NCBI GenBank assembly: GCA_041658725.1
Contig: JBAZZQ010000001.1
Span: 96,938-160,937 of the forward strand
Reading direction: 5' to 3'
Source: Phycisphaerae bacterium
Lineage (GTDB): Bacteria; Planctomycetota; Phycisphaerae; JAAYCJ01
Length of the DNA: 64,000 bases
Part shown: piece after piece, positions 4,856-25,422 of the stretch
Layout: each line of letters starts with the position of its first letter
Numbering within the stretch: position 1 is the first letter of the stretch
Notes under the pieces: model-generated
Seen by the model: the letters and a program-made list of their open reading frames with translations, nothing else
What the model was told of the DNA's origin: nothing
Database searches by the model: none
Translations under genes and position numbers: made by a program

Positions 4856-6544
4856 ATGGCAGCGAAAAAGTTGGCATTTGATACCGAAGCACGAGACGCC
4901 ATCCGCCGGGGCATCAAACAGTTGGCCCGGGCGGTCAAGGTTACGCTCGGTCCGTGCGGACGTAATGTCGTGATAGAAAAATCCTACGGAGCGCCCACGG
5001 TAACCAAAGACGGAGTCACCGTCGCCAAGGAAGTGGAACTGGACGACGCCTACGAAAATATGGGCGCACAGATGGTCAAGGAAGTGGCCTCCAAAACCTC
5101 GAACATCGCCGGAGACGGCACGACGACCGCTACGATCCTCGCCGAAGCGATTTTCGATGAAGGTCTTAAAAACGTGGCCGCAGGGGCCAACGGTATGGAT
5201 ATCAAACGCGGCATCGACAAAGCCGTCGAAGCCGTAGTGGCCGAACTCAAGAAAATGTCGGTCAAGGTCGAATCCGAAAAGCAGATCGCACAGGTCGCGA
5301 CCTGCGCCGCCAACCAGGACCAGGAAATCGGCAACGAGATCGCCCAGGCTATGCAGAAGGTCGGAAAAGACGGAGTGATCACAGTCGAAGAAGGTAAGTC
5401 CCTGGACACCGTGGTGGACCTGGTGGAAGGAATGCAGTTCGACCGCGGATACATCAGCCCGCATTTCATCACCGACCCGGAAAATATGCAGGTCGTCATG
5501 GAAAAGGCTTTCATTTTGATCTACGAAAAGAAGCTCTCTTCCGCCAAGGATTTAATTCCAGTTCTGGAAAAGGTAGCCAAGGCCGGAAGACCCCTGCTCA
5601 TCATCGCCGAAGATATCGAAGGTGAAGCACTGGCCATGCTCGTCGTCAACCGCCTCCGCGGTATCCTCCAGTGCTGTGCGGTAAAAGCTCCCGGATTTGG
5701 CGATCGACGAAAATCCATGATGGATGACATCGCCGTCCTGACCAATGGCAAAGCGATTTTTGAAGATCTCGGGATCAAGCTCGAAAGTATCGAGCTGACG
5801 GACCTGGGAACCGCAAAGACGATCAAAATCGATAAGGAAAATACCACCCTCATCGAAGGCGGCGGAAAGCATGAAGCCATCAAAGGCCGCATCGAGCAAA
5901 TCAAAAACGAAATCGACAAGACCACCAGCGACTACGATCGTGAAAAACTCGAAGAGCGGCTGGCCAAGCTGGCCGGTGGTGTGGCTCAGGTGAAAGTCGG
6001 AGCCGCCACTGAAGTCGAAATGAAAGAGAAAAAGGCACGGGTCGAAGACGCCCTGCACGCGGCCCGCGCTGCCGTCGAAGAAGGCGTATTGCCCGGCGGC
6101 GGAGTGGCCATCCTGCGATGCCTGAAGGTCATCGACAAATTGAAACTCACCGGTGACCAGAAGACCGGTGCCGAGATCGTTAAACGGGCGATGACGGCCC
6201 CGATCAAGCAGATCGCCGAAAACGCCGGTCTGGATGGCTCCATCATTTGTCAAAAGGTCATGGAAAATACCGACAATCCGAATTTCGGTTACGACGCACT
6301 GGCTGGCAAGTATGGCGACATGATGGCCTTCGGCGTGATCGTTCCGACCAAGGTCGAGCGGATCGCCCTCCAGAACGCTGCCAGTATCGCCGGTTTACTG
6401 CTGACCACCAGTTGCGTGGTGGCGGAAATCCCCGAAGAAAAGAAAGCCCCGATGCCCGGTGGCGGCGGCCACGGCGGTGGAATGGGTGGCATGGGAGGTA
6501 TGGGCGGCATGGGTGGCATGGGCGGAATGCCTGGTATGATGTAA
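4856..6544 (+). CDS. groEL: Chaperonin GroEL
   Basis: 562 aa with canonical Cpn60 sequence throughout, including the C-terminal GGM repeat tail ([19 protein letters not shown]). Confidence 0.95.
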
Positions 6545-6600
6545 GATAAGAGACGATAAAAAGAGTTTTGTAAAAAATTCTCTTTGTATCTTTAATAAAC

Positions 6601-6650
6601 GGAGCAAACCTTTCGTTCTCCTTTTGGTTTGCTCCGTTTTCTTTTTTGCT
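6601..6650 (+). terminator. Rho-independent terminator downstream of groEL
   Basis: Stem ggagcaaacc/ggtttgctcc followed by gttttcttttttg. Confidence 0.7.
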
Positions 6651-6811
6651 GTAACCATTCAGGCCTAGGACCTCTCCCGTGATTATTGTCTCTCTTTTAT
6701 AATTGTCCGGTCAAGCCGGACAATCCAGTCCTTTTTTTCGTGTCCGGTAGAGCACCCCTGGATCGTCCGGTAAGCCGGATGATGACAATGAGGGTGGTCT
6801 GAACGGTTACT
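6650..6811. repeat. Palindromic intergenic element, copy B (arms gtaaccattcaggcc...ggtctgaacggttac) enclosing two caagccgga hairpins
   Basis: Outer arms are reverse complements. The internal hairpins ttgtccggtcaagccggacaa and tccggtaagccgga are related to the cores of copies A and C. Confidence 0.5.
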
Positions 6812-6879
6812 TTTTACGCAATTTCGAAATTGATATTCCAAAATCTTTGGTATAATTGGCGCAAAACGGGAGGTGAAAA

Positions 6880-7390
6880 TTGTTATCTGTACCAAAATAC
6901 GCGCTCGGAATGGTCGGCCTGGGAGTCATGGGTCGAAACTTATTATTGAATATGGCTGAGCACGGTTACTCGGTGGCGGGATATGACACGGACCTTGAGA
7001 AAGTTCAAGCTCTGAACACTGAAGGTCATGGCCGCGATGTTCAAGGGGTCAAAAGCATCGAGGAATTGGTGAAATTAAAGCGTTCCCCGACCCATCATCC
7101 TACTGGTCCCCGCCGGTGGACGCGGTCATCCGGGAATTTTGACAATATCTCCAGCCGGGTAACGTGATCATCGACGGCGGCAATTCGCACTTTGTCGATA
7201 CCGACCGACGGCAAAAAATGCTTTCTGAAAACCGAATCGATTTTCTCGGTGGGGGGATCTCCAGCGGTGAATACGGTGTCCGGCACGGCCCCAGCCTCAT
7301 GACCAGGGGAACTTGACAAGCTTACGAAAAAGATCAAACCCATCCTTGAAGCGGTCGCTACAAAAGTCGAGCTAGACAGGTTTGGCAAAA
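6880..7390 (+). pseudogene. gnd: Decayed 6-phosphogluconate dehydrogenase (gnd) N-terminal remnant with multiple frameshifts, truncated after ~170 codons
   Basis: MGLGVMGRNLLLNMAEHGY is the Gnd NAD(P)-binding N-terminus. Downstream Gnd-like segments (PRPIILLVPAGG, PVDAVIREF, GNVIIDGGNSHF, FLGGGISSGEYG, GPSLM) appear in three different frames with in-frame stops. The remaining ~300 codons are absent. Confidence 0.6.
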
Positions 7391-7402
7391 TTGAATGTTA
7401 AA

Positions 7403-7436
7403 TTCATTCTAACATTCTTGAGAATGATAGAATGAT
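7403..7436. repeat. 34-bp palindromic element (attcattctaacattcttgagaatgatagaatga), left copy flanking the ArsR-family gene
   Basis: Near-perfect dyad ttctaacattc-NN-gaatgttagaa. A second copy lies at 7831-7864. Confidence 0.7.
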
Positions 7437-7491
7437 GCTTCCTCCAAATTTACTTCTGAGGGTAGTTATTTTTATCTAATTTTGAAGGCCT

Positions 7492-7764
7492 CTATCGGAT
7501 TTTTTTTAAGAACATCAGAATATTACTCCCGCGATCGGTCAATTTGTGACGAATACTTTTTCCGTCGGAACGTTTCATCACCAGACCGGAAATAGCCAAA
7601 CGCTTTGTATGCGCGGATATTGTCTTAAAGTTGACTCTGAGGTTTTCCGCGATCTCATCCACAGAAAGTTCAGGATTATTTTCCAAAAGGTGCATAATCT
7701 GTATTCTCCGATGGTTGGCATATCCTTTAGTCACACCTTCAAGTCGTCGAAAATTTTCCATCAA
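7492..7764 (-). CDS. ArsR/SmtB-family winged-helix transcriptional regulator
   Basis: 90 aa. HRRIQIMHLLENNPELSVDEIAENLRVNFKTISAHTKRLAISGLV matches the ArsR HTH signature. Confidence 0.7.
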   Translation of the reverse strand: MMENFRRLEGVTKGYANHRRIQIMHLLENNPELSVDEIAENLRVNFKTISAHTKRLAISGLVMKRSDGKSIRHKLTDRGSNILMFLKKIR

Positions 7765-7830
7765 TTCAAAACCTCGTTAAAATATATTTTGCGTATTATT
7801 GACCCATAAATACGATGATTTGTCAAGGGT

Positions 7831-7864
7831 ATTCATTCTAACATTCTCAAGAATGTTAGAATGA
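7831..7864. promoter_or_regulatory. Second copy of the 34-bp palindrome, ~70 bp upstream of the ArsR-family gene start (candidate operator)
   Basis: attcattctaacattctcaagaatgttagaatga. It differs from the 7403 copy only at the dyad centre and one arm position. Confidence 0.5.
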
Positions 7865-8060
7865 CTTAACTGAATAAAAACGTTCTTCTGATCCCTTCGG
7901 TGCGATCATAGGCAGCGCCTACGAAATATCTTACCTACCCAACACAGTGCCGGATAACTTACTAACCTCTCTCCAGATCAGCATGAGACAAGAGAACTTC
8001 ACCCATAGATCGCTTTGGACTTAACGTGCAAGAATATGCACAAACGTTTTTGTCTGTCCA

Positions 8061-8471
8061 TTGAATATGAAACCGAATAAAATATCTTTTATAGATTACC
8101 GTGGAAAGGACGCCGATATGAAACTAACCGAAATCGCCCGGGAACTTGATCTTGAACCGCTAACGCCTGAAATTCTTTCCGATGCTTCACCGGATATTAC
8201 GGCTGGGTATGTGTCCGATCTATTAAGCGACGTTTTGGCTCATGCCCCCGCGCAGGGGGTTCTGGTCACGGTCCAGGTCCACATGAACGTGATCGCCGTG
8301 GCGGTGCATGCGAATTTGACGGCCGTGATCTTCGCCGCAGATCGCCGACCCGAACCACCGGTCATCGAAAAGGCGATGGCGGAAAAAATTACCCTCTTTG
8401 TTTCGAAAGATTCCTCGTTTGCAATCGTCGGTAAGTTGTATTCTATGGGATTGCGAGGACCTTGTGCGTGA
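8061..8471 (+). CDS. DRTGG domain-containing protein (hydrogenase-cluster accessory protein)
   Basis: 136 aa with the DRTGG-like core. Order is as in known hydABC-associated DRTGG/PHP/ATPase trios. Confidence 0.55.
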   Translation: MNMKPNKISFIDYRGKDADMKLTEIARELDLEPLTPEILSDASPDITAGYVSDLLSDVLAHAPAQGVLVTVQVHMNVIAVAVHANLTAVIFAADRRPEPPVIEKAMAEKITLFVSKDSSFAIVGKLYSMGLRGPCA

Positions 8472-10255: not shown

Positions 10256-10801
10256 ATGGAGATTAAGATGAGCGGTGAAAAATGCAAATGCGCGTGTAGC
10301 CAGGAAGTATCGGAAGAGCAGCTTCTGACCCGGCTTGACGAGGTGCTCACTGAGTATCACGACAAGCCTGGGGCGCTGATTCCCGTGCTGCAGATTGCCC
10401 AGGGCATTTTCGGGTATCTGCCCGAATCGGCCCTCAAGCGGATCAGCCTGGGATTGAACAAGTCGTACAGCGAAGTGGCAGGCGTGGTGGGATTTTATTC
10501 CTTTTTCTCGACCGTTCCCCGCGGTAAACACCTGATTCGTGTTTGCCTGGGAACCGCCTGTTATGTTCGCGGTGGAAAGCGCGTTTTGGATGTCCTTAAA
10601 CAAAAATTGGGAATCGACGTTGGTGGAACGACACCGGACCGGATATTTTCACTTGATGTCGCACGGTGTTTCGGTGCGTGCGGATTGGCTCCGGCGATCA
10701 GCATCGACGACGAAGTCCACCAGCGGGTCAAACCTACCAAAATTAACGAAATCCTCGATCAATACCGCGATAAAGACGCGGCAGATCAGAAGGGAGCATA
10801 A
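10256..10801 (+). CDS. hydC: NuoE-like thioredoxin-fold [2Fe-2S] subunit of NADH-dependent [FeFe] hydrogenase (HydC-type)
   Basis: CLGTACYVRGGKRVLD...ARCFGACGLAP. This has the Cys spacing and flanking sequence of NuoE/HoxE/HydC. Confidence 0.8.
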   Translation: MEIKMSGEKCKCACSQEVSEEQLLTRLDEVLTEYHDKPGALIPVLQIAQGIFGYLPESALKRISLGLNKSYSEVAGVVGFYSFFSTVPRGKHLIRVCLGTACYVRGGKRVLDVLKQKLGIDVGGTTPDRIFSLDVARCFGACGLAPAISIDDEVHQRVKPTKINEILDQYRDKDAADQKGA

Positions 10802-10803
10802 TC

Positions 10804-11169
10804 ATGGATAACAAAATCAAAAGTCCAGCCGATTTAAAAAATCTTAGAGACAAACTTAAAAGCACCACCGATCTTCGCCAGGGTCCCAAGGAGATTCAGA
10901 TTACCGTTCACATGGGCACGTGCGGGATCGCGGCTGGGGCGAGAGACGTCCTCCAGCAGTTGGCCTCGGAATTAGGCCAGGCCGGTTTGGATAATGTGAC
11001 ACTACGAAATTCCGGCTGCATCGGTCTGTGTGATCGTGAACCGATGATATCCATGATCGACAAGAACGGCGAACAATTCCGCTATGGCAAGCTAGATCGA
11101 AACAAGGTGCATGAAATCGTTCAGAAACATCTGATTAATAACGAACCTGTATTGCAATATACCGTTTAG
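10804..11169 (+). CDS. Small thioredoxin-like [2Fe-2S] ferredoxin (HydD/HndB-like)
   Basis: 121 aa. ITVHMGTCGIAAGARDV...NSGCIGLCDREPM. Confidence 0.7.
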   Translation: MDNKIKSPADLKNLRDKLKSTTDLRQGPKEIQITVHMGTCGIAAGARDVLQQLASELGQAGLDNVTLRNSGCIGLCDREPMISMIDKNGEQFRYGKLDRNKVHEIVQKHLINNEPVLQYTV

Positions 11170-11183
11170 GAGACGAAACAAAA

Positions 11184-14100
11184 ATGGACAACAATATAAG
11201 AACTCACATTCTCGTTTGTGCCGGGGCGGGGTGCGTGGCTTCGGGGTCGCTCGAAGTCAGTGCCGCCTTGCAGGAGTCCCTGGAACGTCAGGGTTTGTCG
11301 GGTGAAACCAAAGTGATCGAAACCGGCTGTCTGGGCCCCTGTGCCGTCGGACCTGTGGCTGTCGTGTATCCCGATGGAATCTTTTACCAGAACGTCAAAC
11401 CCGCCGACGCCGAGGAAATCGTCAAAGAACATATTTTAAAGGGCAGGGTCGTGGAACGGCTGGTTCGCAAGGACAACGACGGTTCAAAGGCCATCCCGGC
11501 GCTCAACCAGATCGACTTTTTCAACGGTCAGCAGCGAATCGTTTTACGCAATTGCGGATTGATCGATCCCTTGCGAATTGAGGAATACATTACCCGCGAC
11601 GGTTATCAGGCCTTGGCGAAGGTCCTGACGGAAATGACTCCGGAGCAGGTTACCGATGTGGTAAAAAAATCCGGCCTTCGCGGCAGAGGCGGGGCGGGTT
11701 TTTCCACGGGTCTCAAGTGGGAATTCACACGAAAGGCCAAAGGCGAACGAAAATTTGTTTTGTGTAACGCCGATGAAGGCGATCCCGGCGCGTTCATGGA
11801 CCGAAGCGTCCTGGAAGGTGATCCGCACAGCGTGATCGAAGCTATGGCCATCGCCGCTTTCGCAATCGGAGCTCATCAGGGGTTTGTGTATGTTCGAGCG
11901 GAATATCCGCTGGCGGTCAGACGACTCGGTGTCGCTCTGGAACAAGCGCGGGACTTTGGATTGCTCGGCAAAAATATCATGGGCACGGGATTTGATTTCG
12001 ATCTGGAAATCCGAATGGGTTCCGGAGCGTTTGTCTGCGGTGAGGAAACGGCTCTGATGACTTCGATTGAAGGTCATCGCGGTGAACCGCGTCCTCGTCC
12101 GCCGTTCCCGGCCAACAAGGGTCTCTGGGGTATGCCCAGTTTGCTTAATAACGTCGAAACTTATGCCAATATTCCCGTCATTATTCTTAAAGGCGCGGAA
12201 TGGTTCGCATCAATCGGGACCGCCAAGAGCAAGGGCACGAAAGTCTTCGCCCTCGCCGGTGCCGTCAATAATACCGGATTGGTCGAAGTTCCCATCGGAA
12301 TGCCGCTCGGTCAGATTATTTATGATATCGGCGGTGGAATCCCCAACGGTAAAAAATTCAAAGCCGCCCAGATCGGCGGACCCTCCGGCGGATGTATCCC
12401 GAAAGAATATTTGAACGTTCCGGTCGATTATGAATCGCTGAACGAACTCGGCGCGATCATGGGTTCAGGCGGATTGATCGTCATGGACGAAGACACCTGC
12501 ATGGTCGATATGGCTCGGTTCTTCCTCGATTTTGTCCAGGATGAATCGTGCGGAAAGTGTCCCCCCTGCCGCATCGGGACCAAACGCATGTTGGAAATCG
12601 TCAACCGCATCTGCGAAGGCCAGGGCGAGGAAGGCGATATCGAAAAATTGATTTCTCTGGGTAATCAGATCAAAGATACCGCTTTGTGCGGCTTGGGCCA
12701 GACGGCGCCAAATCCGGTGCTTTCGACCATTCGCCATTTCCGGCATGAATACGAGGCCCATATCCGTCAGAAGAAATGTCCCGCTGGAGTTTGCGCCGCG
12801 TTCGTCCGGGCTCCTTGCCAAAACGCCTGTCCGGCGGGTGTGGATATTCCCGGCTATGTTTCACTCATCGGCGAAGGACGATACACCGAAGCTTTGAAAT
12901 TACATCGCGAGCGAAATCCATTCGCCGCCGTCTGCTCGCGCGTTTGTTTCCATACCTGCGAAGACAAATGCCGAAGGTCCGCTGTGGACGAATCGGTTTC
13001 CATCCGCGGTCTGAAGCGTTTCATGGTCGAGCAGGAAGTCGATACCCAATTACCGGAAATTCTTCAAAACGACCAAAACGCGAAACGCAAGATTGCGATC
13101 ATCGGAGGAGGGCCTGCGGGTCTGACCTGTGCTTATTTCCTGGCTCGATTGGGCTATAAGCCGAAAGTTTTTGAATCCGAAAATCGGGCTGGCGGAATGC
13201 TGGTCCAGACTATTCCCGCTTATCGGCTGCCTCGTCAGGAACTCGACCGGGAAATCCGGATGATCGAGAAAATGGGAGTAACCATTCAGACCAACGCCCG
13301 GCTGGGAAAAGATTTTACCCTCAAGAGTTTGCGTGATGAAGGATACGAAGCCGTATTCCTCGCCTGCGGCGCGCCGAATGGAAGCCTGCTCGGTATTCCC
13401 GGAGAAAAAGCCACCGGCGTGATCGACGCCATCGGAATGCTCCGCGAATATAACTTGACGGGTAACACCAAAGTCGGACAAAACGTGGTTGTGGTCGGAG
13501 GCGGAAACGCCGCTATCGACGCCGCACGCTGTGCCGTTCGGTTGGGTGCCAAAAGCGTAACTGTCGTCTACCGGCGAACCCGGGCGGAAATGCCCGCCTA
13601 CGCAGAAGAAATCGACGAGGCCCAGCGGGAAGGGGTTCATCTGAACGTCCTGGTCGCTCCGGTGGAAGTCGTCAGCGAATACGGGCACGTAACAGGAATT
13701 AAGTGCCGACGAATGGCGCTGGGCGAATTTGATAAAACCGGTCGCCGAAGTCCGACGGCCAGCGGGCAGGAAGATTTTGTTATCCCCGCCGATCAAATCA
13801 TCGCCGCCATCGGGCAAAGCCTCGATCCGAAGGAATTCTGTGACGGCGTGGAAGTAAAGTTGAACAAACGCCAATATATCGACGTCAATCCGATCAACGG
13901 TCAAACGTCCGTCGAATGGATTTTCGCCGGTGGTGACGTCGCCAGCGGACCTTCCTCGGTCGCCGAGGCCGTCGGAGGTGGAGAACGAGCCGCCGTCGCG
14001 ATCGACCAGTTCCTGACCGGTCAAATCCACGCCTTCTGGCGAGCCGAAACGGCGGTCGATACCTTCTTTGATCCCGATGCCGACGCGGTCCAATATGCCC

Positions 14101-14234
14101 GAGCCAAGATGAGGCTTCTACCCGTCACCAAGCGAAAATGTAATTTCGCGGAAGTTGAATTGACGTGGGAAGAATCCACAGCAGTACGCGAGGCCAAGCG
14201 ATGCCTGCGTTGTGATTATAGAGAAAGTTCATAA
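11184..14234 (+). CDS. hydB: NuoF-like flavoprotein subunit of [FeFe] hydrogenase (HydB-type: N-terminal 2Fe-2S, FMN/NADH site, 4Fe-4S, 2x[4Fe-4S] ferredoxin) fused to a C-terminal GltD/NfnB-like FAD/NAD(P)H pyridine-nucleotide oxidoreductase domain
   Basis: 1016 aa, organised as:
- residues 1-90: thioredoxin-like 2Fe-2S (CAGAGC...CLGPCAVGP).
- NuoF core: GRGGAGFSTGLKWEF, CNADEGDPGAF, ESCGKCPPCRIG.
- ferredoxin cluster motifs: CPAGVCAAF...CQNACPAGVDIP.
- from ~residue 630: IAIIGGGPAGLTCAYFLARLGY...VVVGGGNAAIDAAR...AGGDV, typical of glutamate-synthase small-subunit-like proteins. Confidence 0.85.
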   Translation: MDNNIRTHILVCAGAGCVASGSLEVSAALQESLERQGLSGETKVIETGCLGPCAVGPVAVVYPDGIFYQNVKPADAEEIVKEHILKGRVVERLVRKDNDGSKAIPALNQIDFFNGQQRIVLRNCGLIDPLRIEEYITRDGYQALAKVLTEMTPEQVTDVVKKSGLRGRGGAGFSTGLKWEFTRKAKGERKFVLCNADEGDPGAFMDRSVLEGDPHSVIEAMAIAAFAIGAHQGFVYVRAEYPLAVRRLGVALEQARDFGLLGKNIMGTGFDFDLEIRMGSGAFVCGEETALMTSIEGHRGEPRPRPPFPANKGLWGMPSLLNNVETYANIPVIILKGAEWFASIGTAKSKGTKVFALAGAVNNTGLVEVPIGMPLGQIIYDIGGGIPNGKKFKAAQIGGPSGGCIPKEYLNVPVDYESLNELGAIMGSGGLIVMDEDTCMVDMARFFLDFVQDESCGKCPPCRIGTKRMLEIVNRICEGQGEEGDIEKLISLGNQIKDTALCGLGQTAPNPVLSTIRHFRHEYEAHIRQKKCPAGVCAAFVRAPCQNACPAGVDIPGYVSLIGEGRYTEALKLHRERNPFAAVCSRVCFHTCEDKCRRSAVDESVSIRGLKRFMVEQEVDTQLPEILQNDQNAKRKIAIIGGGPAGLTCAYFLARLGYKPKVFESENRAGGMLVQTIPAYRLPRQELDREIRMIEKMGVTIQTNARLGKDFTLKSLRDEGYEAVFLACGAPNGSLLGIPGEKATGVIDAIGMLREYNLTGNTKVGQNVVVVGGGNAAIDAARCAVRLGAKSVTVVYRRTRAEMPAYAEEIDEAQREGVHLNVLVAPVEVVSEYGHVTGIKCRRMALGEFDKTGRRSPTASGQEDFVIPADQIIAAIGQSLDPKEFCDGVEVKLNKRQYIDVNPINGQTSVEWIFAGGDVASGPSSVAEAVGGGERAAVAIDQFLTGQIHAFWRAETAVDTFFDPDADAVQYARAKMRLLPVTKRKCNFAEVELTWEESTAVREAKRCLRCDYRESS

Positions 14235-14350
14235 AAATGGTTTCGACTCGTCCCCTGTGGCAGCAGGGGGTTCCTGAAGAACCCCCGACTACCGTCGGGG
14301 GCTAGTTATGAGATTGTGAAACCGGAGTAAATAACAAGGAGTTATAAAAA

Positions 14351-16123
14351 ATGCCGAAATTAACTATTAACAATATCGAAGTCCAGGCTCCCGAAGGAGT
14401 CTCTATTCTTGAAGCCGCCAAACAAGCAGGCGTCAGGATTCCCACACTCTGCTACCTTGAAAAAGTCCAGGCTATCGGCGCCTGCCGAGTCTGCCTGGTG
14501 GAAGTCGAAGGCGCGAAAACTCTCGTCGCCTCCTGCGTCATGCCGGTCGCGGAAGGGATGAAAGTCCAAACCAACACCAAGCGTGTCCGCGACGCCCGGC
14601 GAACGGTGGTCGAACTGTTGCTGTCCGATCACGACGGCGAGTGCCAAACCTGCGACCGCAACGACGATTGCGAGCTCCAGGCCCTTGCCCGTGAATTGGG
14701 GATACGCGAAATCACTTATCCCGGAGAAAAGAGCAAAAGCGTCATTGATACCAGCACGCCTGCCCTCGTCCGCGATACGGGAAAATGCATCCTGTGCCGG
14801 CGATGCGTAACCGTTTGCGGGACCACACAGGGAGTAGCGGCACTATTCCCGCAAAACCGCGGTTTCAAAACGGTGGTCGGACCCGCATTCTGCTCCGAGC
14901 TTAAAGACGTCGTATGCGTTCAGTGCGGACAGTGCGGCGCTGTTTGCCCAGTCGGGTCCATCGGCGAAAATGATCAGATCGCGGAAGTCTGGGCGGCATT
15001 GGACGATCCGAGCAAGCATGTGGTCGTTCAAACCGCACCCGCCATTCGGGCTGCTTTGGGCGAATGCTTCGGCCTACCCGCAGGAACGCTGGTAACCGGA
15101 AAAATGGTTTCCGCCCTTCGACGGCTTGGATTTGACGCTGTGTTCGATACCAACTTCACAGCCGACCTGACGATCATGGAAGAAGGCACTGAACTGCTGA
15201 CGCGGCTTCAAAAAGCACTGGTCAAAAAGGAAGAAGTAGCCCTTCCCATGTTCACCAGTTGCTCGCCAGGATGGATCAAATTCATGGAACACTTTTACCC
15301 GGACATGCTGCCGAATCTCTCTACGTGTAAATCCCCGCAGCAGATGTTCGGCGCTGTTGCAAAGACCTATTACGCGAAAAAATTAAATAAACGCCCCGAG
15401 GATATTTTTGTCGTTTCGATCATGCCCTGCACCGCCAAGAAATTCGAGTGCCAGCGGCCGGAAATGAATGACAGCGGTGTCCGCGATGTCGATGTGGTTT
15501 TGACGACCCGCGAACTCGGACGGATGATTAAGCAGGCGGGAATTGATTTCGTGTCTCTGCCCGATGACAAGATGGACGCTCCTCTGGGCTTGTCGTCAGG
15601 GGCCGCCGATATTTTCGCCAACACGGGCGGCGTTATGGAAGCGGCATTGCGAACCGCGTATGAAATCATTACGGGTAGAACTTTGCCCTTCGATAACCTT
15701 CACGTCCAGCCCATCGCCGGTCTTGATGGTGTTAAAGAAGCAGCCCTTACGATTACAGGAACCAAACCCGAATGGTCCTTCCTCGAAGGGGCGATTGTGA
15801 AAATCGCCGTCGCGCATGGCCTGGGCAATGCCCGCAGTATCATCGAGCGAATTCGATCCGGCCAGGCGCAGTATCACTTTATCGAAGTGATGACCTGTCC
15901 GGGCGGATGCATCGGCGGCGGCGGTCAGCCGAGAGTAACCACCGACGAGGTCCGAAAGGCCAGGATCGCCGCGATCTACCGCGAGGATGAAGGCAAAAAA
16001 ATGCGAAAATCCCACGAGAACGCGGAAGTAAAACAGATTTATGAGGAATTCCTGGGTCGTCCCCTCGGTGAAAAATCGCATCACCTGCTGCACACCAAGT
16101 ACATCGTCCGTGAGCGGGTGTAA
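14351..16123 (+). CDS. hydA: [FeFe]-hydrogenase catalytic subunit HydA (M3, CpI-like architecture) with atypical L1 motif
   Basis: 590 aa. N-terminal 2Fe-2S (CYLEKVQAIGACRVC), accessory FeS motifs (CQTCDRNDDC, CILCRRCVTVC, CVQCGQCGAVCP). H-cluster motifs L2 (MPCTAKKFE) and L3 (EVMTCPGGCIGGGGQP) are canonical, but L1 reads TSCSPGW rather than TSCCPxW. Confidence 0.85.
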   Translation: MPKLTINNIEVQAPEGVSILEAAKQAGVRIPTLCYLEKVQAIGACRVCLVEVEGAKTLVASCVMPVAEGMKVQTNTKRVRDARRTVVELLLSDHDGECQTCDRNDDCELQALARELGIREITYPGEKSKSVIDTSTPALVRDTGKCILCRRCVTVCGTTQGVAALFPQNRGFKTVVGPAFCSELKDVVCVQCGQCGAVCPVGSIGENDQIAEVWAALDDPSKHVVVQTAPAIRAALGECFGLPAGTLVTGKMVSALRRLGFDAVFDTNFTADLTIMEEGTELLTRLQKALVKKEEVALPMFTSCSPGWIKFMEHFYPDMLPNLSTCKSPQQMFGAVAKTYYAKKLNKRPEDIFVVSIMPCTAKKFECQRPEMNDSGVRDVDVVLTTRELGRMIKQAGIDFVSLPDDKMDAPLGLSSGAADIFANTGGVMEAALRTAYEIITGRTLPFDNLHVQPIAGLDGVKEAALTITGTKPEWSFLEGAIVKIAVAHGLGNARSIIERIRSGQAQYHFIEVMTCPGGCIGGGGQPRVTTDEVRKARIAAIYREDEGKKMRKSHENAEVKQIYEEFLGRPLGEKSHHLLHTKYIVRERV

Positions 16124-16156
16124 AAATAGGCGGTAACTGGACAGAAGATTTTTTTA

Positions 16157-16232
16157 CCACGAATTGCATGGCCGGCACGAATAGACTATAATAAGTTCGT
16201 GCCAGGCTGTGTAATTCGTGGTTTCTTTTTGG
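16157..16232 (+). terminator. Rho-independent terminator after hydA (nested hairpin plus T-run)
   Basis: ccacgaattgc...ggcacgaatagactataataagttcgtgcc...gtaattcgtgg followed by tttcttttt. Confidence 0.65.
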
Positions 16233-16244
16233 ATTAAATGATCG

Positions 16245-16652
16245 ATGCAAAAAAAACTGCCCCTAATTCTTCTGATCGACGACGACCCGGACTTTACTGC
16301 GATGAACAAACTCATGCTTGAATCCAACGGGTATCGTATCCTTTGTACCCACGATTCGCGGGAGGCTTTAAAAAAGATGGCAGAGGATAAACCTTCACTG
16401 GTCATTACCGATTTAATGATGCAAAATCTGGATTCAGGGTTCGCTTTTTCCCGTCAGATGAAGCAGGACCCGCGATTCAAAGATATCCCGGTCATCATTC
16501 TGACCTCGGTCAGCAGTCAGCATGGATTTGATTTTCATCCGCGGAGCGGCGAGGAACTTTCCGCTATGAACGCCGACGCCTTTTTTGAAAAACCGATTTC
16601 CTCTAAAATCCTTCTCAAAAAAGTCGAGGAACTTATCAAACGAAATATTTAA
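16245..16652 (+). CDS. Single-domain response regulator (CheY-like receiver)
   Basis: LILLIDDDPDF...LVITDLMMQNLDSGFAF...IPVIILTS is a canonical REC domain with no output domain. Confidence 0.7.
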   Translation: MQKKLPLILLIDDDPDFTAMNKLMLESNGYRILCTHDSREALKKMAEDKPSLVITDLMMQNLDSGFAFSRQMKQDPRFKDIPVIILTSVSSQHGFDFHPRSGEELSAMNADAFFEKPISSKILLKKVEELIKRNI

Positions 16653-17412
16653 CCGCGTTTGTGAAAATTTTCATTCCACTGGATTTTTTTTGCTTTGCGT
16701 TTTTGTCAGGATTTTGTGTCGGGTCGATGTGTCGTTCCGGATGCGGCATGAGGCCGAAGATTTTTCCGCTGGGGTCGCAAATTCCGGCGATATCATCGAC
16801 CGATCCATTGGGGTTGATCGGAAAGGGGCCGGGTTGGCCGTGGTCGTCGACGTAACGAAAAACAATTTGATCTTTCTGTCGCAACTGATCGAGAATTTCA
16901 TTATCGCGGGGAATAAACTTTCCCTCGCCGTGCGCGACAGGCAGATAAATCATTTCTCCGGACTTGATGAACGCGCATTTTCGGCTGAAGGATTTTAGCC
17001 AGACCCAACGATCTTCATATTTTCCGCTGTCGTTATCGCTGAGGGTGAGTTTCTGTGAAAAGTCGCCTTTAAGTTCCGGCTGGGGAAGGAGGCCCGCTTT
17101 GACCAGGACTTGAAACCCATTGCAAATTCCGAGCACGAGTTTGTCGCCCTGCACAAATTCGGAAAGTTGCTCGCCAAGCTCATGGCGCAGCCGGACGGCA
17201 AAAATCTTACCTGCCGAGATATCATCCCCGTAACTGAATCCGCCGGGAATGACTAATATCTGGTAATTATCGAGTAGGCGTGGGGAATCGCCCAGACGAT
17301 TGATATGGACGGAATCGACACGGGCACCGGCCTGCTCGAAGGCGAAGACGGTTTCTTTATCGCAATTCGTTCCCGCCGCTCGCAGGACGATGACTCTTAC
17401 ATTTCCGTTGGT
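16636..17412 (-). CDS. purQ: Phosphoribosylformylglycinamidine synthase subunit PurQ (glutaminase)
   Basis: VRVIVLRAAGTNCDKET...VIPGGFSYGDD...LGICNGFQVL...HGEGKF is a class-I glutamine amidotransferase of the PurQ type. Probable start is MTNGNV at 17412 (ORF extends to 17436). Confidence 0.8.
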   Translation of the reverse strand, partial: TNGNVRVIVLRAAGTNCDKETVFAFEQAGARVDSVHINRLGDSPRLLDNYQILVIPGGFSYGDDISAGKIFAVRLRHELGEQLSEFVQGDKLVLGICNGFQVLVKAGLLPQPELKGDFSQKLTLSDNDSGKYEDRWVWLKSFSRKCAFIKSGEMIYLPVAHGEGKFIPRDNEILDQLRQKDQIVFRYVDDHGQPGPFPINPNGSVDDIAGICDPSGKIFGLMPHPERHIDPTQNPDKNAKQKKSSGMKIFTNAVKYFV

Positions 17413-17461
17413 CATAATTACTCCTAAAAAGGGCACACAAACCGGCCCCTACAATCAAAAA

Positions 17462-18073
17462 TTATATCTTTTTTACCGCTACGCGGTAGATGCTTCTTCC
17501 TTCTTTGACAAATTTTGCTTCGTAATTGCTTAAAACCTCATTGCCGGCTGGACTGTCGAATTCGCAGGGGACAAAATTCGGAATCGCGGAAAGATTTGTT
17601 TCGATCTGCTGGAAATATTCCTCGTGGTCGCTGGCGGCGTAAATTTTTCCGCCAGGCATCAAGACGCGGGAAAGGACTTGGCAAAAATCCGGTATAAAGA
17701 GTCTTCGTTTGTGATGCCGTTTTTTCGGCCAGGGGTCTGGAAAATACACGTGAAAGACCGATACGGATTGCGGGGGAAGTTGCCGCATGACAAATTCCCG
17801 GGCGTCTGTTCGGAGCATTTTTACATTGGTCAGGTTCCATCGTCGGATTCTGTCGACGGTATAGCGATAGAATTTGCTGGCCCATTCGATTCCGAGAAAA
17901 TTGTGATCGGGTTTGGTCTGTGCCAGATGCACCATCAGCGTGCCTCTGCCGCAGCCGATCTCGATTTCCACCGGACGGTCATTGCCGAAAATCGTTTTGA
18001 AATCCGCGACCTGGCCGATTTCGTCCGACGGCAAGACGAATTGTTCATCCATGAGCAGAGGAGGTTTTGTCAT
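17462..18073 (-). CDS. trmB: tRNA (guanine46-N7)-methyltransferase TrmB
   Basis: EIEIGCGRGTLMVHLA...FHVYFPDPWPKKRHHKRRL matches the TrmB SAM-MTase signature. Confidence 0.8.
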   Translation of the reverse strand: MTKPPLLMDEQFVLPSDEIGQVADFKTIFGNDRPVEIEIGCGRGTLMVHLAQTKPDHNFLGIEWASKFYRYTVDRIRRWNLTNVKMLRTDAREFVMRQLPPQSVSVFHVYFPDPWPKKRHHKRRLFIPDFCQVLSRVLMPGGKIYAASDHEEYFQQIETNLSAIPNFVPCEFDSPAGNEVLSNYEAKFVKEGRSIYRVAVKKI

Positions 18074-19765: not shown

Positions 19766-21114
19766 ATGGTATTACAAGAATCCGAAATTCTGGAACTCAA
19801 AAAGTCCACCGCGGAATTGAAGGAAGCGGTGATTTCTATCGGTGCGATCCTGAACAAGCATCAGGGCGGCTTGCTCTATTTCGGTGTGAAGAACGATGGG
19901 ACCCCGCGGTCGGTCAGGCGGTCGGTGATAAAACCGTCCGCGACATCTCGAAGGCCATTGCCGACCACCTTGAGCCGAAGATCTACCCGGAAATCAAACC
20001 GGTAACCTTCAGCGGAAAGTCATGCATTGAGGTCCGGTTTTCTGGAAAACAAGTTCCCTATTTTGCATTTGGCCGCGCGTACATCCGCGTGGGCGACGAG
20101 GACAGGCAACTGTCCGCCAAGGGAATTGAGTCGTTTATTCTCAAGAAAAATTTTGAGGCGGTTCGCTGGGAATCCCAAGTCTCAACCCAAAACGAAAACG
20201 ACCTGGATGTCGATCTGGTCAAGCGCTTTGTCCGCAAAGCCAACCAGGCGGGACGAATCAGGTTCAAGTTTCGTTCGGTTGGAGAAACCCTGAAAAAACT
20301 CGGCCTGCTTCAGGGTGGACATATTCTTCGGGCTGCCGAGGTGCTTTTCAGTTCCCATCCGCCCCTGAAGATTCAGGCGGCGGTCTTCACCGGGACCGAC
20401 AAACTGACATTTCTGGACATCCGACAATTCGAGGGCAATCTTTTTTTCCTGCTCTTGGTGGCCGAAGAATACCTGAAAGAAAAAATGAACTGGCGGGTGA
20501 AGTTCGGAAAACTTCAGCGAGAGGAAATACCCGAGATTCCGCTGGAGGCCTTGCGGGAGGCCCTGGTGAACTCCGTGTGCCACCGCGATTATTGCTCCCC
20601 GGAAAGCAATTACCTGGCCGTCTACAAGAACCGGATCGAGATTGAAAACCCCGGCGAGTTCCCAGAAGGGTTTGAGCCGGAGGATTTCATTTACAAGGGA
20701 GAACGTTCTGTTCTTCGTAACCCCCTGATTGCCGATGTGCTTTATCGCACACGGGACATCGAGAAATGGGGGTCCGGGCTCAAGCGGATTCACGACGAGT
20801 GCGCCGGGCACGACATCAAGGTGGAATTCCAGAAGATGAAGGCTGGTTTTAAGGTGGTCTTTTATCGAAGCGTTCCTACGGCACAGACGCCTCCGACACC
20901 TACCCCCCAAACTACCCCCCAAACTACCCTCAATATTCAAGCCACGATTTTGGCACTGATTCGGGAGATTCCGGCAATCACGAAGGAAGAACTTGCCCGA
21001 CGGTTGAACCTGACCATCGACGGGATCAAGTACCATATCCGCAAGCTTCGAAGACAAGGCGTACTGCTTTGGGAAGGCCCCAGCAAGGCCGGGCATTGGA
21101 AGATCAAGGCCTAA
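19766..21114 (+). pseudogene. AlbA_2 (Schlafen-like, divergent AAA) / HATPase_c_4 / C-terminal wHTH protein ('RecG C-terminal-like' putative regulator), interrupted by a frameshift near 19905
   Basis: The N-terminal AlbA_2 motif (ESEILELKKS...LLYFGVKNDGTPR) is in one frame (19766-20005). Continuation (GQAVGDKTVRDISKAIADHLEPKIYPEIKPVTFSGKS...MGDEDRQ...) is in the +1 frame up to 21114. The shift lies inside the tandem ggtcggtcaggcggtcggtg. Confidence 0.6.
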
Positions 21115-21396
21115 ACATGGAATTGCGCCGTCCGCGCAAAAAAGCCCGCGAATCTTAAAACAGCGAAAAGGGGACAAAGGGGTCATAATGGGGTCAAAAA
21201 AGGGACATGAAGCGGGGGTTATACCAAGAAAAAGAATTCCGGAAAGCGGGATATTTTCTTTCTTGCTGAAATGGGCTTTTTAAACCAAAATGACCGGTTG
21301 TTGTTCGATACGATAGTCAGGGTGTACGGCATGTCGTGTTGCTTCAATTGGCCAGCCACATTCCATCATAATCGTGGTTTCTCCGCAAACTTGGCG

Positions 21397-23160
21397 TCAT
21401 TGCAGCCGGTTCAAAAGCGCCAGGAAATTCCGTTTGCGTCCGTGAGCGGCCCGGAGAGTTTGTAGATACGAAGCAAATTCCGTTTCTTGATTTGCTGTTT
21501 TCAAGAGCGCCCGGATTTTCTTGATCCAGGTGACGGCGTCCTTGTAATTATCGTTTCCCCCGTGGCTGATCAGTTTCTCAACGTGCTTCCGATAAATGGG
21601 AATGGCATCGACGGGATGTTCCTTTTCCCGCAACCGAGCCAGTTCCATCCACAGGTCGTCGGAGCAACCTCCGGCCAGGGCCTCCGTCCATGCGGTCTCG
21701 GCATCCTTTTCCCACAGATAAATCCGGACAAGAAGCGAATGGTCTCTTGGGGTTGACCAATCATATCGACGAGCCTCTTTTTTTTCCTGGACGATCTTTT
21801 TTTGAATAAAGGCCAAAGCCTGCTCGCGCCATCGCGGCCAATCTTTAACACGTTCCGCATGCGTCTTGAGTTCCTGATACGAGTGCAAGTCGGGTCGGTC
21901 TTCCAGGTTGGCCCAGATCAATTTCATGGCCTCGTCGTGCCGTTTCTGCCTATGATACTCTTCGGCCAAGAAGGTGCGAAGTTGGGAGTCCGGTCGTTCG
22001 AGAAACGCCTTCAGACCGTCTTGGGCCCATTGGATTGCCCGGTCGTATTTCTTGTTCTCCCGGTAAAGCTGCGCGATCGCCAGGTAGTGATGGGCGGCGG
22101 ACAAGTCACGGCTCTTGACGGCCACCAGAGCCTCAATGTCCCCTTGTCTCTCGGCCAGGTTTTCCATAATCGATTTTAAACCGTAGCGTCGATGATCGTA
22201 AGAATCCTCCCGCTGTCCGGGTTTTAATGCAGGTAGCTTGTTCCACTCGGTCTCCACCAGTTTGCGGAACGCGGCCAGGCCTTTTTCCCCCAGGACATCC
22301 GAATAGGTTTCCACCGTATGGTTAAAAACATTACCGTAATCGTCCATCTCCCATTCAAACAATTGCCGGGCCAATCGTTCCGGATCGGGTTTGGCCGCCA
22401 CGCAGGCGTCGTGGTGCAGTTCCTGCAACTCCTCAAAAGTATCCCCGATCCAGCCGTCGGAATCATCCGCTACCCGCGAGATTTGTTCAAAGCGATCCAT
22501 CGCATATTCGACCAGTTCCAACACCTCTTTGATATGCCCCTCCTTCAGCAAGTCTCTGAAATTCTTGATGATCTCGTCTAAATTACGAGTGGCTTCATAC
22601 GGCGATTCGTAATCCGAATAGTCTCCCCCTCCGACCGCGTGATCGATGGCCTTGCGGATGGCGGCTGAATTTATCCCTTGTTGGCCGGTCCGCGACATTT
22701 TCATCATCAACCGGCCCAGAAGTTTTTCATCGTCCATAGCCTGACTCATGATGACTTCCACCAGGGCGGAAACTTCTTGAGTTTGAAGGAATTTGCGCAG
22801 GTCCTCCATCGACGGGGCTTTTTCCTTTTTTGAAGATTCGGTTCGACCGTGATCCGCCTTGCCCGGTTCCGCGCCTTTTTCCAGATATGCCAGCCCGGCC
22901 GCCACACAATGCTTGCAGAACTCCCCCTCCTGACCGAAAGGACAGTTACACTCGCCGTCCAGTTTGTCCTTGTGCATCCATAGCTTGACCTTGTACGTAT
23001 GGGTCCCCCGCACCTTGGCAACGATGACCCCATTATCCTCAACCAGAGAAATCACCGCCCCTTCATGAAAGTAATCCACCCCCCGCTGCCAGGACCCGGA
23101 GCCCGCTAATTGCTTCAATTTTGCCTTCGTGAATTCCATATTACCTAATTCATTACCCAT
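21397..23160 (-). CDS. SWIM zinc-finger domain protein with long helical/TPR-like C-terminal region
   Basis: GECNCPFGQEGEFCKHCVAAGLAY is a CxCxnCxH SWIM finger near the N-terminus. A start at 23160 (MGNELGNMEF) overlaps the upstream gene's stop in an ATGGGTAA arrangement; the ORF-track start at 23367 is probably too early. Confidence 0.55.
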   Translation of the reverse strand: MGNELGNMEFTKAKLKQLAGSGSWQRGVDYFHEGAVISLVEDNGVIVAKVRGTHTYKVKLWMHKDKLDGECNCPFGQEGEFCKHCVAAGLAYLEKGAEPGKADHGRTESSKKEKAPSMEDLRKFLQTQEVSALVEVIMSQAMDDEKLLGRLMMKMSRTGQQGINSAAIRKAIDHAVGGGDYSDYESPYEATRNLDEIIKNFRDLLKEGHIKEVLELVEYAMDRFEQISRVADDSDGWIGDTFEELQELHHDACVAAKPDPERLARQLFEWEMDDYGNVFNHTVETYSDVLGEKGLAAFRKLVETEWNKLPALKPGQREDSYDHRRYGLKSIMENLAERQGDIEALVAVKSRDLSAAHHYLAIAQLYRENKKYDRAIQWAQDGLKAFLERPDSQLRTFLAEEYHRQKRHDEAMKLIWANLEDRPDLHSYQELKTHAERVKDWPRWREQALAFIQKKIVQEKKEARRYDWSTPRDHSLLVRIYLWEKDAETAWTEALAGGCSDDLWMELARLREKEHPVDAIPIYRKHVEKLISHGGNDNYKDAVTWIKKIRALLKTANQETEFASYLQTLRAAHGRKRNFLALLNRLQ

Positions 23161-24100
23161 CGGATTGGTTCTTATCCTCTTTCCCCTCGTATAACACACG
23201 GTAGTGTTCAATCGTATCCCAATCCAAAGCAAAATTCGCATACTGCTTGAGCAGACGAAACTTTCCACAACCGGGAATCTGGCATTCGCTTTTATCTCGG
23301 GGGCAAGAATTAAAGGCGCACAATCGGCCAAGGTACCGATTCGTACCCGGTTCCAGAAGGAACACATCTATCTGATGGTGGGCGGGAGTGAGGCCCGTTT
23401 TCTCCCGGAGGGTGTTCAAAGCGGCATTCCGGGCTTTGAATAGTGCTTTTAAAGAATTCAAATCACTGACCCAGACGGCCAGATCCACGTCTTTGCACTC
23501 ATGCGGTAGTGCCACATTATACCGGCGGAATTCGGCAAATCGCGGGACTTCCCTTGTAAGAGGCTGAGCGACCGACCCGAACAGAACCACTTTTTCCACG
23601 AACGGCAATTTTGAAAAGGCCGCCGCCACAAATTCCACGGTAATCTGAAAGTCCCTCCACCGTTTCTGTAAGCATTGCTCTTGCTCGGCGATCGCCCGTT
23701 CCGACGGTCGATCGCAGGAATCCTCCCATTCATCGCCCTCCTCCCCATCAGGGAGATGGTTGCTCCCGGCGAGCGAATCCGCCTCATCAACGTGATCGGT
23801 CGAAGGGAAATTTCCAACATCAACGTCTCCTTGCCGTCCAATGGGAACAAGGTCCCGCTCAGACGGTTTTGCTTTTCGTGCCTTCTTTCGGGCCGCTTTT
23901 TCCTGTCGCTTCCCATACATCTCTCGAACCCAGTCCTCGACCAGCAATTTCCACCGCTGGGATGGCGAAGGGATGTTTTTTATCAGGCTTTTCGGATTCA
24001 GACCCATTTCCTGGGCCATCCGCAGAGCCTCGGCGCTCAGCCGGCATCTCTGTTTGGCTCTTTGCCATTCGTCCTGGATGTGACCGTGTTTTCCAGACAT
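23153..24100 (-). CDS. Minimal nucleotidyltransferase-fold protein (Pol-beta superfamily) with Cys-rich C-terminal tail
   Basis: VVLFGSVAQPL...ECKDVDLAVWV matches the hG[GS] / DxD NTase motif. C-terminal CAFNSCPRDKSECQIPGCGKF. The N-terminal ~120 aa are charged and uncharacterised. Confidence 0.45.
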   Translation of the reverse strand: MSGKHGHIQDEWQRAKQRCRLSAEALRMAQEMGLNPKSLIKNIPSPSQRWKLLVEDWVREMYGKRQEKAARKKARKAKPSERDLVPIGRQGDVDVGNFPSTDHVDEADSLAGSNHLPDGEEGDEWEDSCDRPSERAIAEQEQCLQKRWRDFQITVEFVAAAFSKLPFVEKVVLFGSVAQPLTREVPRFAEFRRYNVALPHECKDVDLAVWVSDLNSLKALFKARNAALNTLREKTGLTPAHHQIDVFLLEPGTNRYLGRLCAFNSCPRDKSECQIPGCGKFRLLKQYANFALDWDTIEHYRVLYEGKEDKNQSDG

Positions 24101-24145
24101 GGTGAAATTATCGCAGAGTCGCGAGGGGATGGCAAGGGCAGGATT

Positions 24146-25048: not shown

Positions 25049-25217
25049 GTCCCCGATGGCCGGGACGTGCTCAACCTCATCAATGCTAAAATTTATGGGA
25101 AGAAATAACTTTTCTTCGACATTCGCCTTGACAAAATTTCAATCCTCGGCGACAACAATAATAATCCAAGGGCGCGTAGCCCTTGAAAACTTTTTCTATT
25201 AGGATAGGAGACCAATC

Positions 25218-25298
25218 ATGGCAAAAGCCGCTGCAAAGAAAAAAGCACCCGCGAAGAAACCAGTAGCCGCCAAGAAGAAATCCTGCGGCTGCAAGTAA
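25218..25298 (+). CDS. Putative 26-aa Lys/Ala-rich peptide (MAKAAAKKKAPAKKPVAAKKKSCGCK)
   Basis: GGAGA RBS 7 nt upstream of the ATG, and a strong bidirectional hairpin/T-run terminator 55 nt downstream. Composition resembles histone-H1-like tails. It falls below the 60-aa ORF-track cutoff. Confidence 0.3.
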   Translation: MAKAAAKKKAPAKKPVAAKKKSCGCK

Positions 25299-25352
25299 AA
25301 CGATTCGTTGAAACTCACTCAATGGGTCCGCCTTGAAAGGATTCAAGGTAAC

Positions 25353-25406
25353 AAAAAAAATGGAAGGCGCCCCGGCCACGGCGGTACCTTCCATCTTTGG
25401 TTTTTA
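25353..25406. terminator. Bidirectional rho-independent terminator between the small peptide gene (+) and the HU gene (-)
   Basis: aaaaaaaa-ggaaggcgccccggccacggcggtaccttcc-atctttggttttt. The GC-rich hairpin has A-run and T-run flanks on both sides. Confidence 0.65.
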
Positions 25407-25422
25407 CCGGTTGTTAAACCGA

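Follow-up and report, generated by a model that had tools for sequence, protein, structure and literature searches.

The window analyzed here, a stretch of 64,000 nucleotides from Phycisphaerae bacterium contig JBAZZQ010000001.1, encodes an [FeFe] hydrogenase catalytic subunit (HydA) whose L1 motif carries a serine, Ser305, at the position of the second canonical cysteine. A first-pass annotation of the window had read the codons at 15254 to 15268 (acc agt tgc tcg cca) as T-S-C-S-P. This reading was confirmed: the codons are in frame and belong to TSCSPGW in an open reading frame (ORF) of 590 amino acids. The annotation had also correctly assigned proton relay to the first L1 cysteine and ligation of the [4Fe-4S] subcluster of the H-cluster ([4Fe-4S]H) to the second, and its description of L2 and L3 as intact (MPCTAKKFE and EVMTCPGGCIGGGGQP) was exact. 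The gene and its motifs are as follows, with enzymes of Acetobacterium woodii, Thermoanaerobacter kivui, Desulfovibrio desulfuricans, Clostridium pasteurianum (CpI), and Chlamydomonas reinhardtii (CrHydA1) among the references.

14351 to 16123, + strand: hydA (BfuA, HndD), [FeFe] hydrogenase catalytic subunit of 590 amino acids, identified by Pfam, NCBIfam, and PDB matches
15176 to 15208, + strand: MEEGTELLTRL, residues 276 to 286, equivalents of CpI E279, E282, and R286, from alignments
15251 to 15274, + strand: L1 (P1) motif FTSCSPGW, residues 301 to 308, from sequence and translation
15260 to 15262 (TGC), + strand: Cys304, at the proton-relay position (CpI C299), from gap-free alignments to the A. 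woodii, T. kivui, and D. desulfuricans enzymes
15263 to 15265 (TCG), + strand: Ser305, at the [4Fe-4S]H ligand position, aligned to CpI C300, A. woodii Ser301, T. kivui Cys299, and CrHydA1 C170
15314 to 15337, + strand: NLSTCKSP, holding the equivalent of CpI S319, from alignments
15422 to 15448, + strand: L2 (P2) motif MPCTAKKFE, residues 358 to 366, with cluster ligand Cys360; translated, invariant in homologs
15884 to 15931, + strand: L3 (P3) motif EVMTCPGGCIGGGGQP, residues 512 to 527, with cluster ligands Cys516 and Cys520, whose columns are 100% conserved

L2 and L3 fit the patterns MPCxxKxxE and ExMxCxxGCxxGxGxP, with all three Cys ligands present. Proton-pathway residues were assigned to CpI positions according to the established proton pathway of that enzyme. 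The A. woodii HydA1 stretch MITSCSPGWIKF aligned without gaps to the stretch MFTSCSPGWIKF of window HydA, and residue counting placed Ser305 at A. woodii Ser301 and T. kivui Cys299, i.e., at the second L1 position. The motif itself reads TSCSPGW in A. woodii, FTSCCPSW in T. kivui, and TSCCPGW in D. desulfuricans. Since no insertion or deletion (indel) was found in or beside L1 in alignments to these three enzymes and CpI, a shift in the register of the motif, which the first-pass annotation had entertained, is excluded.

HydA has the M3a layout: a 2Fe-2S domain, a His-ligated 4Fe-4S domain, a 2×4Fe-4S domain, the H-domain, and a fused small-subunit domain. Its Pfam matches (Fe_hyd_lg_C, 1.7e-100; Fe_hyd_SSU, 5.8e-25; also Fer2_4 and NADH-G_4Fe-4S_3) comprised Fe-S and H-domain families only, and no PAS or other sensory domain was found among them. 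Over residues 3 to 586, the protein scored 908.2 bits (cutoff, 765) against NCBIfam model NF040763 (“NADH-dependent [FeFe] hydrogenase, group A6”), in agreement with the NCBI naming of the identical protein, and 532 bits (cutoff, 406) against the group A model TIGR02512; its score for the group B1 model TIGR04105 was far under the cutoff. Several homologs are named HndD by JGI. The best full-length PDB match was A. woodii HydA1 (7q4v_A; E value, 2.4e-191; ∼51% identity), whereas the H-domain alone scored 447 bits with T. kivui HydA1 and 400 bits with A. woodii HydA1. A template-free AlphaFold 2 (AF2) model, built without cofactors from a shallow alignment (79 to 88% identity) and with disordered Fe-S regions (mean predicted local distance difference test [pLDDT] score, 63.8), was used for fold-level matching only and not for ligand geometry. 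Its closest Foldseek match was T. kivui HydA1, followed by A. woodii HydA1 and CpI, which agrees with the sequence analysis.

With its H-domain and small-subunit domain, its TIGR02512 score, and intact L2 and L3, HydA falls into group A. It departs from the canonical L1 signature TSCCPxW in having the first Cys, but Ser in place of the second. The published P1 definition for BfuA, xTSCxPxWx (PMC11406978), is compatible with Ser; together with the deviation of A. woodii HydA1, this indicated that TSCCPxW is not strictly defining for group A.

Conservation and history of Ser305

Conservation of the motif was determined in three sets of homologs. The close set consisted of the 120 best database homologs (79 to 100% identity), mostly from metagenome-assembled genomes (MAGs) of Planctomycetota, Phycisphaerae, and Hydrogenedentota. 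L1 read (F/S)(T/S)SCSPGW in 108 and TSCCPAW in 12 of these proteins, L2 and L3 were intact throughout, and Cys304, Cys360, Cys516, and Cys520 were invariant (120/120). The GTDB set held 80 loci from species-representative genomes (62 to 83% identity), 79 of them with a readable motif. C-S-P was present in 73 of the 79, spread over about ten phyla: Planctomycetota, Hydrogenedentota, Fibrobacterota, Kiritimatiellia, Verrucomicrobiota, Lentisphaerae, Spirochaetota, Myxococcota, Desulfobacterota (Desulfobacterales), Bacteroidota (Kapaibacteria, Paludibacteraceae, and Prolixibacteraceae), and others. In the wider set, for which the 150 top-scoring representatives were taken from a library of 1.84 billion proteins clustered at 50% identity, L1 read TSCSP in 27, SSCSP in 3, and TSCCP in 90 sequences. 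Judged from these counts, the Ser variant is shared by many diverse enzymes. Neither Ala, Gly, nor Thr was found at site 305 among Ser-clade members of the three sets.

The serine at this site was encoded by TCG (48 cases), TCT (17), TCC (8), TCA (5), AGC (1), and AGT (1). With every Ser codon in use but the amino acid constant, the site bears the mark of purifying selection for Ser rather than of a base-calling artifact. Moreover, the identical 590-amino-acid protein was present on three separately recorded contigs (NCBI, JGI, Logan, and ENA). The first-pass annotation had raised the alternative of a single-base error, with TGC as the real codon, and would have given up its reading had close orthologs all carried TSCCP. 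Two bases separate TCG from TGC, however, so that a double change would be needed, and the orthologs revealed the opposite pattern, most of them having Ser in sequences from independent projects. The only argument for a sequencing or assembly error concealing a canonical TSCCP enzyme is the a priori rarity of non-Cys ligands. Against it stand the conservation, the codon use, the three contigs, and the covariation of the adjacent Gly307 with Ser described below, and we regard the chance of such an error as negligible.

Some unusually long sequences were encountered in these searches. In loci L064 and L018, stop-to-stop ORFs with HydA motifs spanned 1,656 and 958 amino acids, possibly because HydA is joined to HydB by fusion or read-through, or because these MAG contigs lack a stop. 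The top match of the representative search (P0121) was a predicted protein of 4,122 amino acids with seven H-domain-like stretches (1,999 bits; 44% identity), in which a regular-expression scan found no canonical L1 motif. Either several hydrogenases are fused in this giant protein, or it is an artifact of assembly or gene calling.

To reconstruct the history of the site, 210 H-domains were placed on a neighbor-joining (NJ) tree computed from 312 columns, with the D. desulfuricans enzyme as the root; deep nodes of this tree are unreliable at 40 to 50% identity. Fitch parsimony gave Cys as the root state and at least 15 Cys/Ser changes. Window HydA was placed in a large, mainly Ser clade (105 Ser and 19 Cys sequences, the latter nested inside), and A. 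woodii HydA1 elsewhere, in a small Ser group amid Cys-type enzymes. Ser thus probably arose, and was reverted, more than once. A single origin of the Ser clade was considered improbable from the number of changes and from the separate position of A. woodii HydA1, with the NJ tree taken as indicative only.

Two further sites covaried with residue 305 in the close set: Ser305 strictly accompanied Gly307 (15269 to 15271) and Ala335 (15353 to 15355), and Cys305 accompanied Ala307 and Pro335. In the redundancy-weighted broader set, only Gly307 stayed notable (Ser-type, 94% Gly; Cys-type, 52% Ala, 37% Gly, and 11% Ser), while the other top columns looked phylogenetic. A shorter Fe-O bond might draw the loop inward and thereby favor Gly307. 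No compensating Cys was found in the Ser-type sequences of the close set, where every Cys column was common to the Cys-type enzymes, so that no alternative thiol appears to have been recruited.

The operon and the BfuB-GltD fusion

HydA is encoded last in an operon, behind three genes on the same strand:

10256 to 10801, + strand: BfuC/HydC/HndA-like NuoE-type [2Fe-2S] subunit (Pfam 2Fe-2S_thioredx, 9.4e-47; NCBIfam HoxE/NuoE-like)
10804 to 11169, + strand: BfuD/HndB-like small thioredoxin-like [2Fe-2S] subunit (Pfam 2Fe-2S_thioredx, 1.3e-6), also present in the orthologous loci L001 to L003
11184 to 14234, + strand: BfuB/HydB/HndC-like NuoF-type flavin mononucleotide (FMN) subunit fused to a GltD/NfnA/StnA-like module, 1,016 amino acids (Pfam and PDB matches)

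The NADP-reducing/bifurcating HndABCD of Desulfovibrio fructosovorans has the same order (NuoE-like, small 2Fe-2S, NuoF-like, HydA), but its HndC is not known to carry the GltD-like extension of window BfuB. The arrangement of NuoE-like, NuoF-like, and HydA genes was also kept in L001 to L003.

Pfam domains of BfuB were Complex1_51K, NADH_4Fe-4S, Fer4_20 (residues 532 to 620), and Pyr_redox_2 (636 to 933). Residues 6 to 540 matched A. woodii HydB (7q4v_B; E value, 9e-245), and residues 541 to 1011 matched the GltD-like NADPH/flavin adenine dinucleotide (FAD) modules 9bov_A, 8oh5_C (StnA), and 9n5u_A (NfnA). This second part comprises a 2×[4Fe-4S] DPD_II domain with FAD and NAD(P)H sites and replaces the C-terminal ferredoxin-like B3/B4 domain; fingerprints were recognized at about residue 641 (GGGPAG, for FAD) and residue 772 (GGGNAA...VYRR, for NAD(P)H). 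By analogy with GltD-type enzymes, the Arg pair of VYRR suggests that the module uses NADPH.

The fusion occurred as a single ORF in 69 of 83 related loci from many phyla, 65 with a Ser-type and 4 with a Cys-type HydA, and was present both in L001 (Ser) and in L003 (Cys). Strict coupling of Ser to the fusion was rejected because the fusion accompanies both states and A. woodii combines Ser with an unfused HydB; the two traits are thus not mechanistically tied. A literature search for a HydB-GltD fusion returned nothing relevant, and a term search of the Bfu classification paper found no mention of the fusion. The domain replacement itself was described for sub-type I BfuB, which has DPD_II and an FAD/NAD(P) domain in place of B3/B4 (Zheng and Huang 2024; PMC11406978). 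No other part of the locus is as poorly understood as the GltD-like module, described bioinformatically only.

The BfuB stop and the HydA start are separated by a spacer of 116 nucleotides. At about 14250 to 14305 it contains two inverted repeats rich in G+C, CCCCTG..CAGGGG and CCCCCGAC..GTCGGGGG, followed by a good AAGGAG Shine-Dalgarno sequence. The repeats could form an mRNA stem-loop or a processing or attenuation element.

As in group A3/BfuABC systems, HydA is encoded with a NuoF-like BfuB and a NuoE-like BfuC, but the ferredoxin-interacting B3/B4 domain of BfuB has given way to the GltD-like module. DPD_II (Fer4_20) and FAD/NAD(P) domains in BfuB, the presence of BfuD, the M3a layout of BfuA, and Ser at the fifth P1 position are the features of sub-type I BfuABCD. 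By its sequence and gene context, HydA is accordingly classified as a catalytic group A3 (“A6”) BfuA of sub-type I. The sub-type I systems of Hydrogenedentota and other phyla (PMC11406978) share the gene set, the order C-D-B-A, the BfuB module, M3a, and Ser with the window, and Hydrogenedentota MAGs supply close homologs of its HydA. In contrast to these systems, the window stems from a planctomycete and has no HydS-like (BfuT) gene in the upstream flank. Among the five BfuA sub-types of Hydrogenedentota, four commonly have Ser at the fifth P1 position (Zheng and Huang 2024; PMC11406978), and TSCSPGW was described in Melainabacteria hydrogenases (Di Rienzi et al. 2013; PMC3787301).

Proposed ligation of the [4Fe-4S]H subcluster

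By homology with A. woodii HydA1, the side-chain oxygen of Ser305 would replace the cysteine thiolate as the fourth [4Fe-4S]H ligand, and Cys360, Cys516, and Cys520 would complete a Cys3Ser-ligated subcluster. Cys304 would retain proton relay toward the azadithiolate (adt) amine, and the enzyme would turn over H2 normally within the BfuABCD/HndABCD-type NAD(P)-linked complex encoded by 10256 to 16123. We consider it highly probable that Ser305 is a genuine and selectively maintained substitution of the second L1 Cys, acting as a cluster ligand in a catalytically competent group A3 (“A6,” BfuA) hydrogenase. To the sequence, conservation, register, family, and operon context established above, published work on A. 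woodii HydA1 and CrHydA1 adds Ser ligation with near-normal Fourier-transform infrared (FTIR) spectra and activity, and we infer that window HydA behaves like these characterized Ser relatives.

In A. woodii HydA1, whose FTIR signatures and activity are normal, Ser301 replaces the [4Fe-4S]H Cys ligand (Katsyv et al. 2023; PMC10021017). Changed cluster ligation, one of the outcomes proposed in the first-pass annotation, would match this solved enzyme, in which Ser301 stands in the Cys-ligand place. The A. woodii HydABC(D) complex (PDB 7Q4V/7Q4W/8A5E; PMC10021017) resembles the window system in the TSCSPGW core with Ser301 at the site of Ser305, aligned without indel or alternative Cys, in the M3a domain order, and in its NuoE- and NuoF-like partners and small HydD/BfuD subunit. 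It differs in that its HydB keeps the C-terminal ferredoxin-like B3/B4 domain where window BfuB has the GltD-like module, in coming from Bacillota rather than a Phycisphaerae MAG, and in the placement of its HydA1 outside the window's Ser clade; judging from the tree, Ser in the two enzymes may be convergent. T. kivui HydA1 (PDB 8A6T) and CpI have the fold, H-domain, L2, L3, and proton pathway in common with window HydA, but a canonical TSCCP and an all-Cys [4Fe-4S]H, and CpI is in addition monomeric and ferredoxin dependent.

The same exchange was engineered in CrHydA1 (Kertess et al. 2017; PMC5855289). The C170S variant retained the [4Fe-4S] cluster, accepted [2Fe] slowly, and had unchanged FTIR bands. 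It was the most active ligand variant, with measurable H2 evolution and uptake, a bias to evolution, and ∼9 to 32% of the wild-type evolution rate. In contrast to this artificial mutant in a Cys-adapted scaffold, the natural Ser clade had time to coadapt, e.g., through Gly307. The natural abundance of Ser indicates that the site tolerates an oxygen ligand in an adapted scaffold, whereas the engineered enzyme is impaired.

Serine might alternatively be a nonligand, with the cluster held by three Cys, the fourth iron bearing water, hydroxide, or nothing, and the side chain filling space or forming a hydrogen bond. CrHydA1 C170A indeed still bound ∼60% of the [4Fe-4S] cluster, with solvent coordination considered possible (PMC5855289), and ligation in A. 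woodii HydA1 is less than certain at the resolution of its cryo-electron microscopy (cryo-EM) structure. However, [2Fe] was taken up by C170S and C170D but not by C170A, which indicates that an oxygen ligand matters; moreover, Ser is strictly kept, with no Ala, Gly, or Thr among Ser-clade members, and the depositors of the A. woodii structure modeled Ser as a ligand (PMC10021017). We therefore judge a nonligand Ser unlikely. Even less probable is a loss of function by register shift, in which Cys304 would ligate the cluster, the relay would be lost, and HydA would be a slow enzyme or a sensory one like HydS of groups C/D.

L1 substitutions mark sensory [FeFe] hydrogenase groups, and the first-pass annotation had accordingly pointed to sensory or slow enzymes. 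HydS proteins likewise depart from TSCCP in L1, HydS-like genes adjoin A3 operons in orthologous loci, and a response regulator and an HATPase_c protein adjoin the operon in the window. In contrast, L1 contains no indel, and the first Cys, which is changed in the sensory groups, is invariant here. HydS proteins possess PAS, kinase, or other signaling domains, and window HydA has none, while its score for the catalytic group A6 model lies above the cutoff. It is encoded with NuoE/NuoF-like partners, as is catalytic HydABC; orthologous loci encode the sensor separately; and the Ser-bearing A. woodii relative of group A3/“A6” is a fully active bifurcating hydrogenase. The proposed link to sensory or slow groups was thus not supported.

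Several points weigh against Ser305 as a ligand in an active enzyme. Ser ligation and activity are known from relatives rather than from the window protein or its immediate clade, and, given the moderate resolution of the cryo-EM maps, “ligand” is a modeling statement for A. woodii HydA1. Since A. woodii HydA1 lies outside the Ser clade of the window in the H-domain NJ tree and the nearest solved structure by H-domain alone is the Cys-type T. kivui enzyme, Ser may have arisen independently, and its local environment could differ. Slow maturation and reduced activity of CrHydA1 C170S mean that neutrality is not guaranteed (PMC5855289). The AF2 model is mediocre (pLDDT, 63.8) and contains no cofactors, and hydE, hydF, and hydG maturase genes were not found within the 64-kb window.

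A more far-reaching interpretation is that the exchange is an adaptive, repeatedly evolved tuning of [4Fe-4S]H specific to bifurcating-type enzymes and locked by Gly307-like neighbors. Together with the BfuB-GltD fusion, it would act in an NADP(H)-linked two-flavin hydrogenase with a coupling novel for hydrogenases. Such tuning would affect the potential of [4Fe-4S]H, the bias to H2 evolution, maturation kinetics, or oxidative robustness. Hints in this direction are the strict retention of Ser despite one-step reversion from TCT or TCC, the repeated Cys/Ser changes in the NJ tree, the evolution bias of CrHydA1 C170S (PMC5855289), and the statement that FAD and FMN-FeS in one hydrogenase “has never been reported” biochemically (PMC11406978). 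The A. woodii enzyme, however, has no spectroscopic or activity difference (PMC10021017), and we regard adaptive tuning as a tentative and rather doubtful proposal.

The Ser-for-Cys exchange is already known from structure and spectroscopy (2023), mutagenesis (2017), and comparative genomics (2013 and 2024), and window HydA is an instance of it rather than an error or a novel enzyme type. Annotators should therefore not take TSCSP as evidence of an error, of a pseudogene, or of a sensory enzyme. Natural Ser at a cluster-ligand site, present in about one-fifth of the nearest 50%-identity clusters and in about ten phyla, may be of some use to hydrogenase engineers. Of more consequence at this locus than a possible tuning of potential, bias, or maturation by Ser is the GltD-fused BfuB, with its widespread NADP(H)/FAD module.

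Flanking genes and orthologous loci

The genes next to the operon are as follows:

8061 to 8471, + strand: 136-amino-acid protein without family match, conserved upstream, also before the operon in L001 to L003
8462 to 9205, + strand: PHP-domain protein, conserved upstream, also in L001 to L003
9198 to 9734, + strand: small HATPase_c protein, conserved upstream, also in L001 to L003
16245 to 16652, + strand: stand-alone response-regulator receiver directly 3′ of hydA (Pfam Response_reg, 1.3e-17)

HydS-like genes with weak Fe_hyd_lg_C matches, PF04060, and sometimes HATPase_c_2 were located upstream of the operon in L001 (782 to 1990), L002 (332 to 1951), and L003 (1531 to 3099), and no HydS-like sensor gene was found in the window. 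In its place, the region 6544 to 8061 contains a 6-phosphogluconate-dehydrogenase-like N-terminal fragment in two frames (6880 to 7167 and 7164 to 7316), probably the remains of a pseudogene, together with a small ArsR-like helix-turn-helix (HTH) gene on the − strand (7492 to 7764). Response regulators and kinases are also present downstream in L003. In this TSCCPAW-type locus, hydG, hydE (radical SAM), and hydF (an acetyltransferase-domain fusion) lie directly downstream (13490 to 17773), accompanied by several kinase and response-regulator genes.

Near the hydrogenase cluster, the − strand encodes a RACo-type reductive activator of corrinoid Fe-S proteins (1870 to 3804; RACo_C_ter, 2.6e-82), a hint that this Phycisphaerae MAG has methyl transfer dependent on corrinoids or metabolism related to the Wood-Ljungdahl pathway. 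Farther downstream, a DUF6880 protein (21397 to 23367) is encoded between two HATPase_c_4 (“RecG C-terminal”-like) proteins (20089 to 21114, + strand, and 26739 to 28376, − strand), one with an AlbA_2/Schlafen and the other with an HTH_24 domain, and the region 20089 to 28376 looks like a mobile or defense-type island. A glycan-utilization cluster on the − strand (49493 to 63962) encodes a GH38 alpha-mannosidase, a PfkB kinase-HAD fusion, a GHL6/fucosidase-like protein, a major facilitator superfamily (MFS) transporter, a GH116/MGH1-like protein, and a 1,034-amino-acid protein whose sole Pfam match is a C-terminal dockerin.

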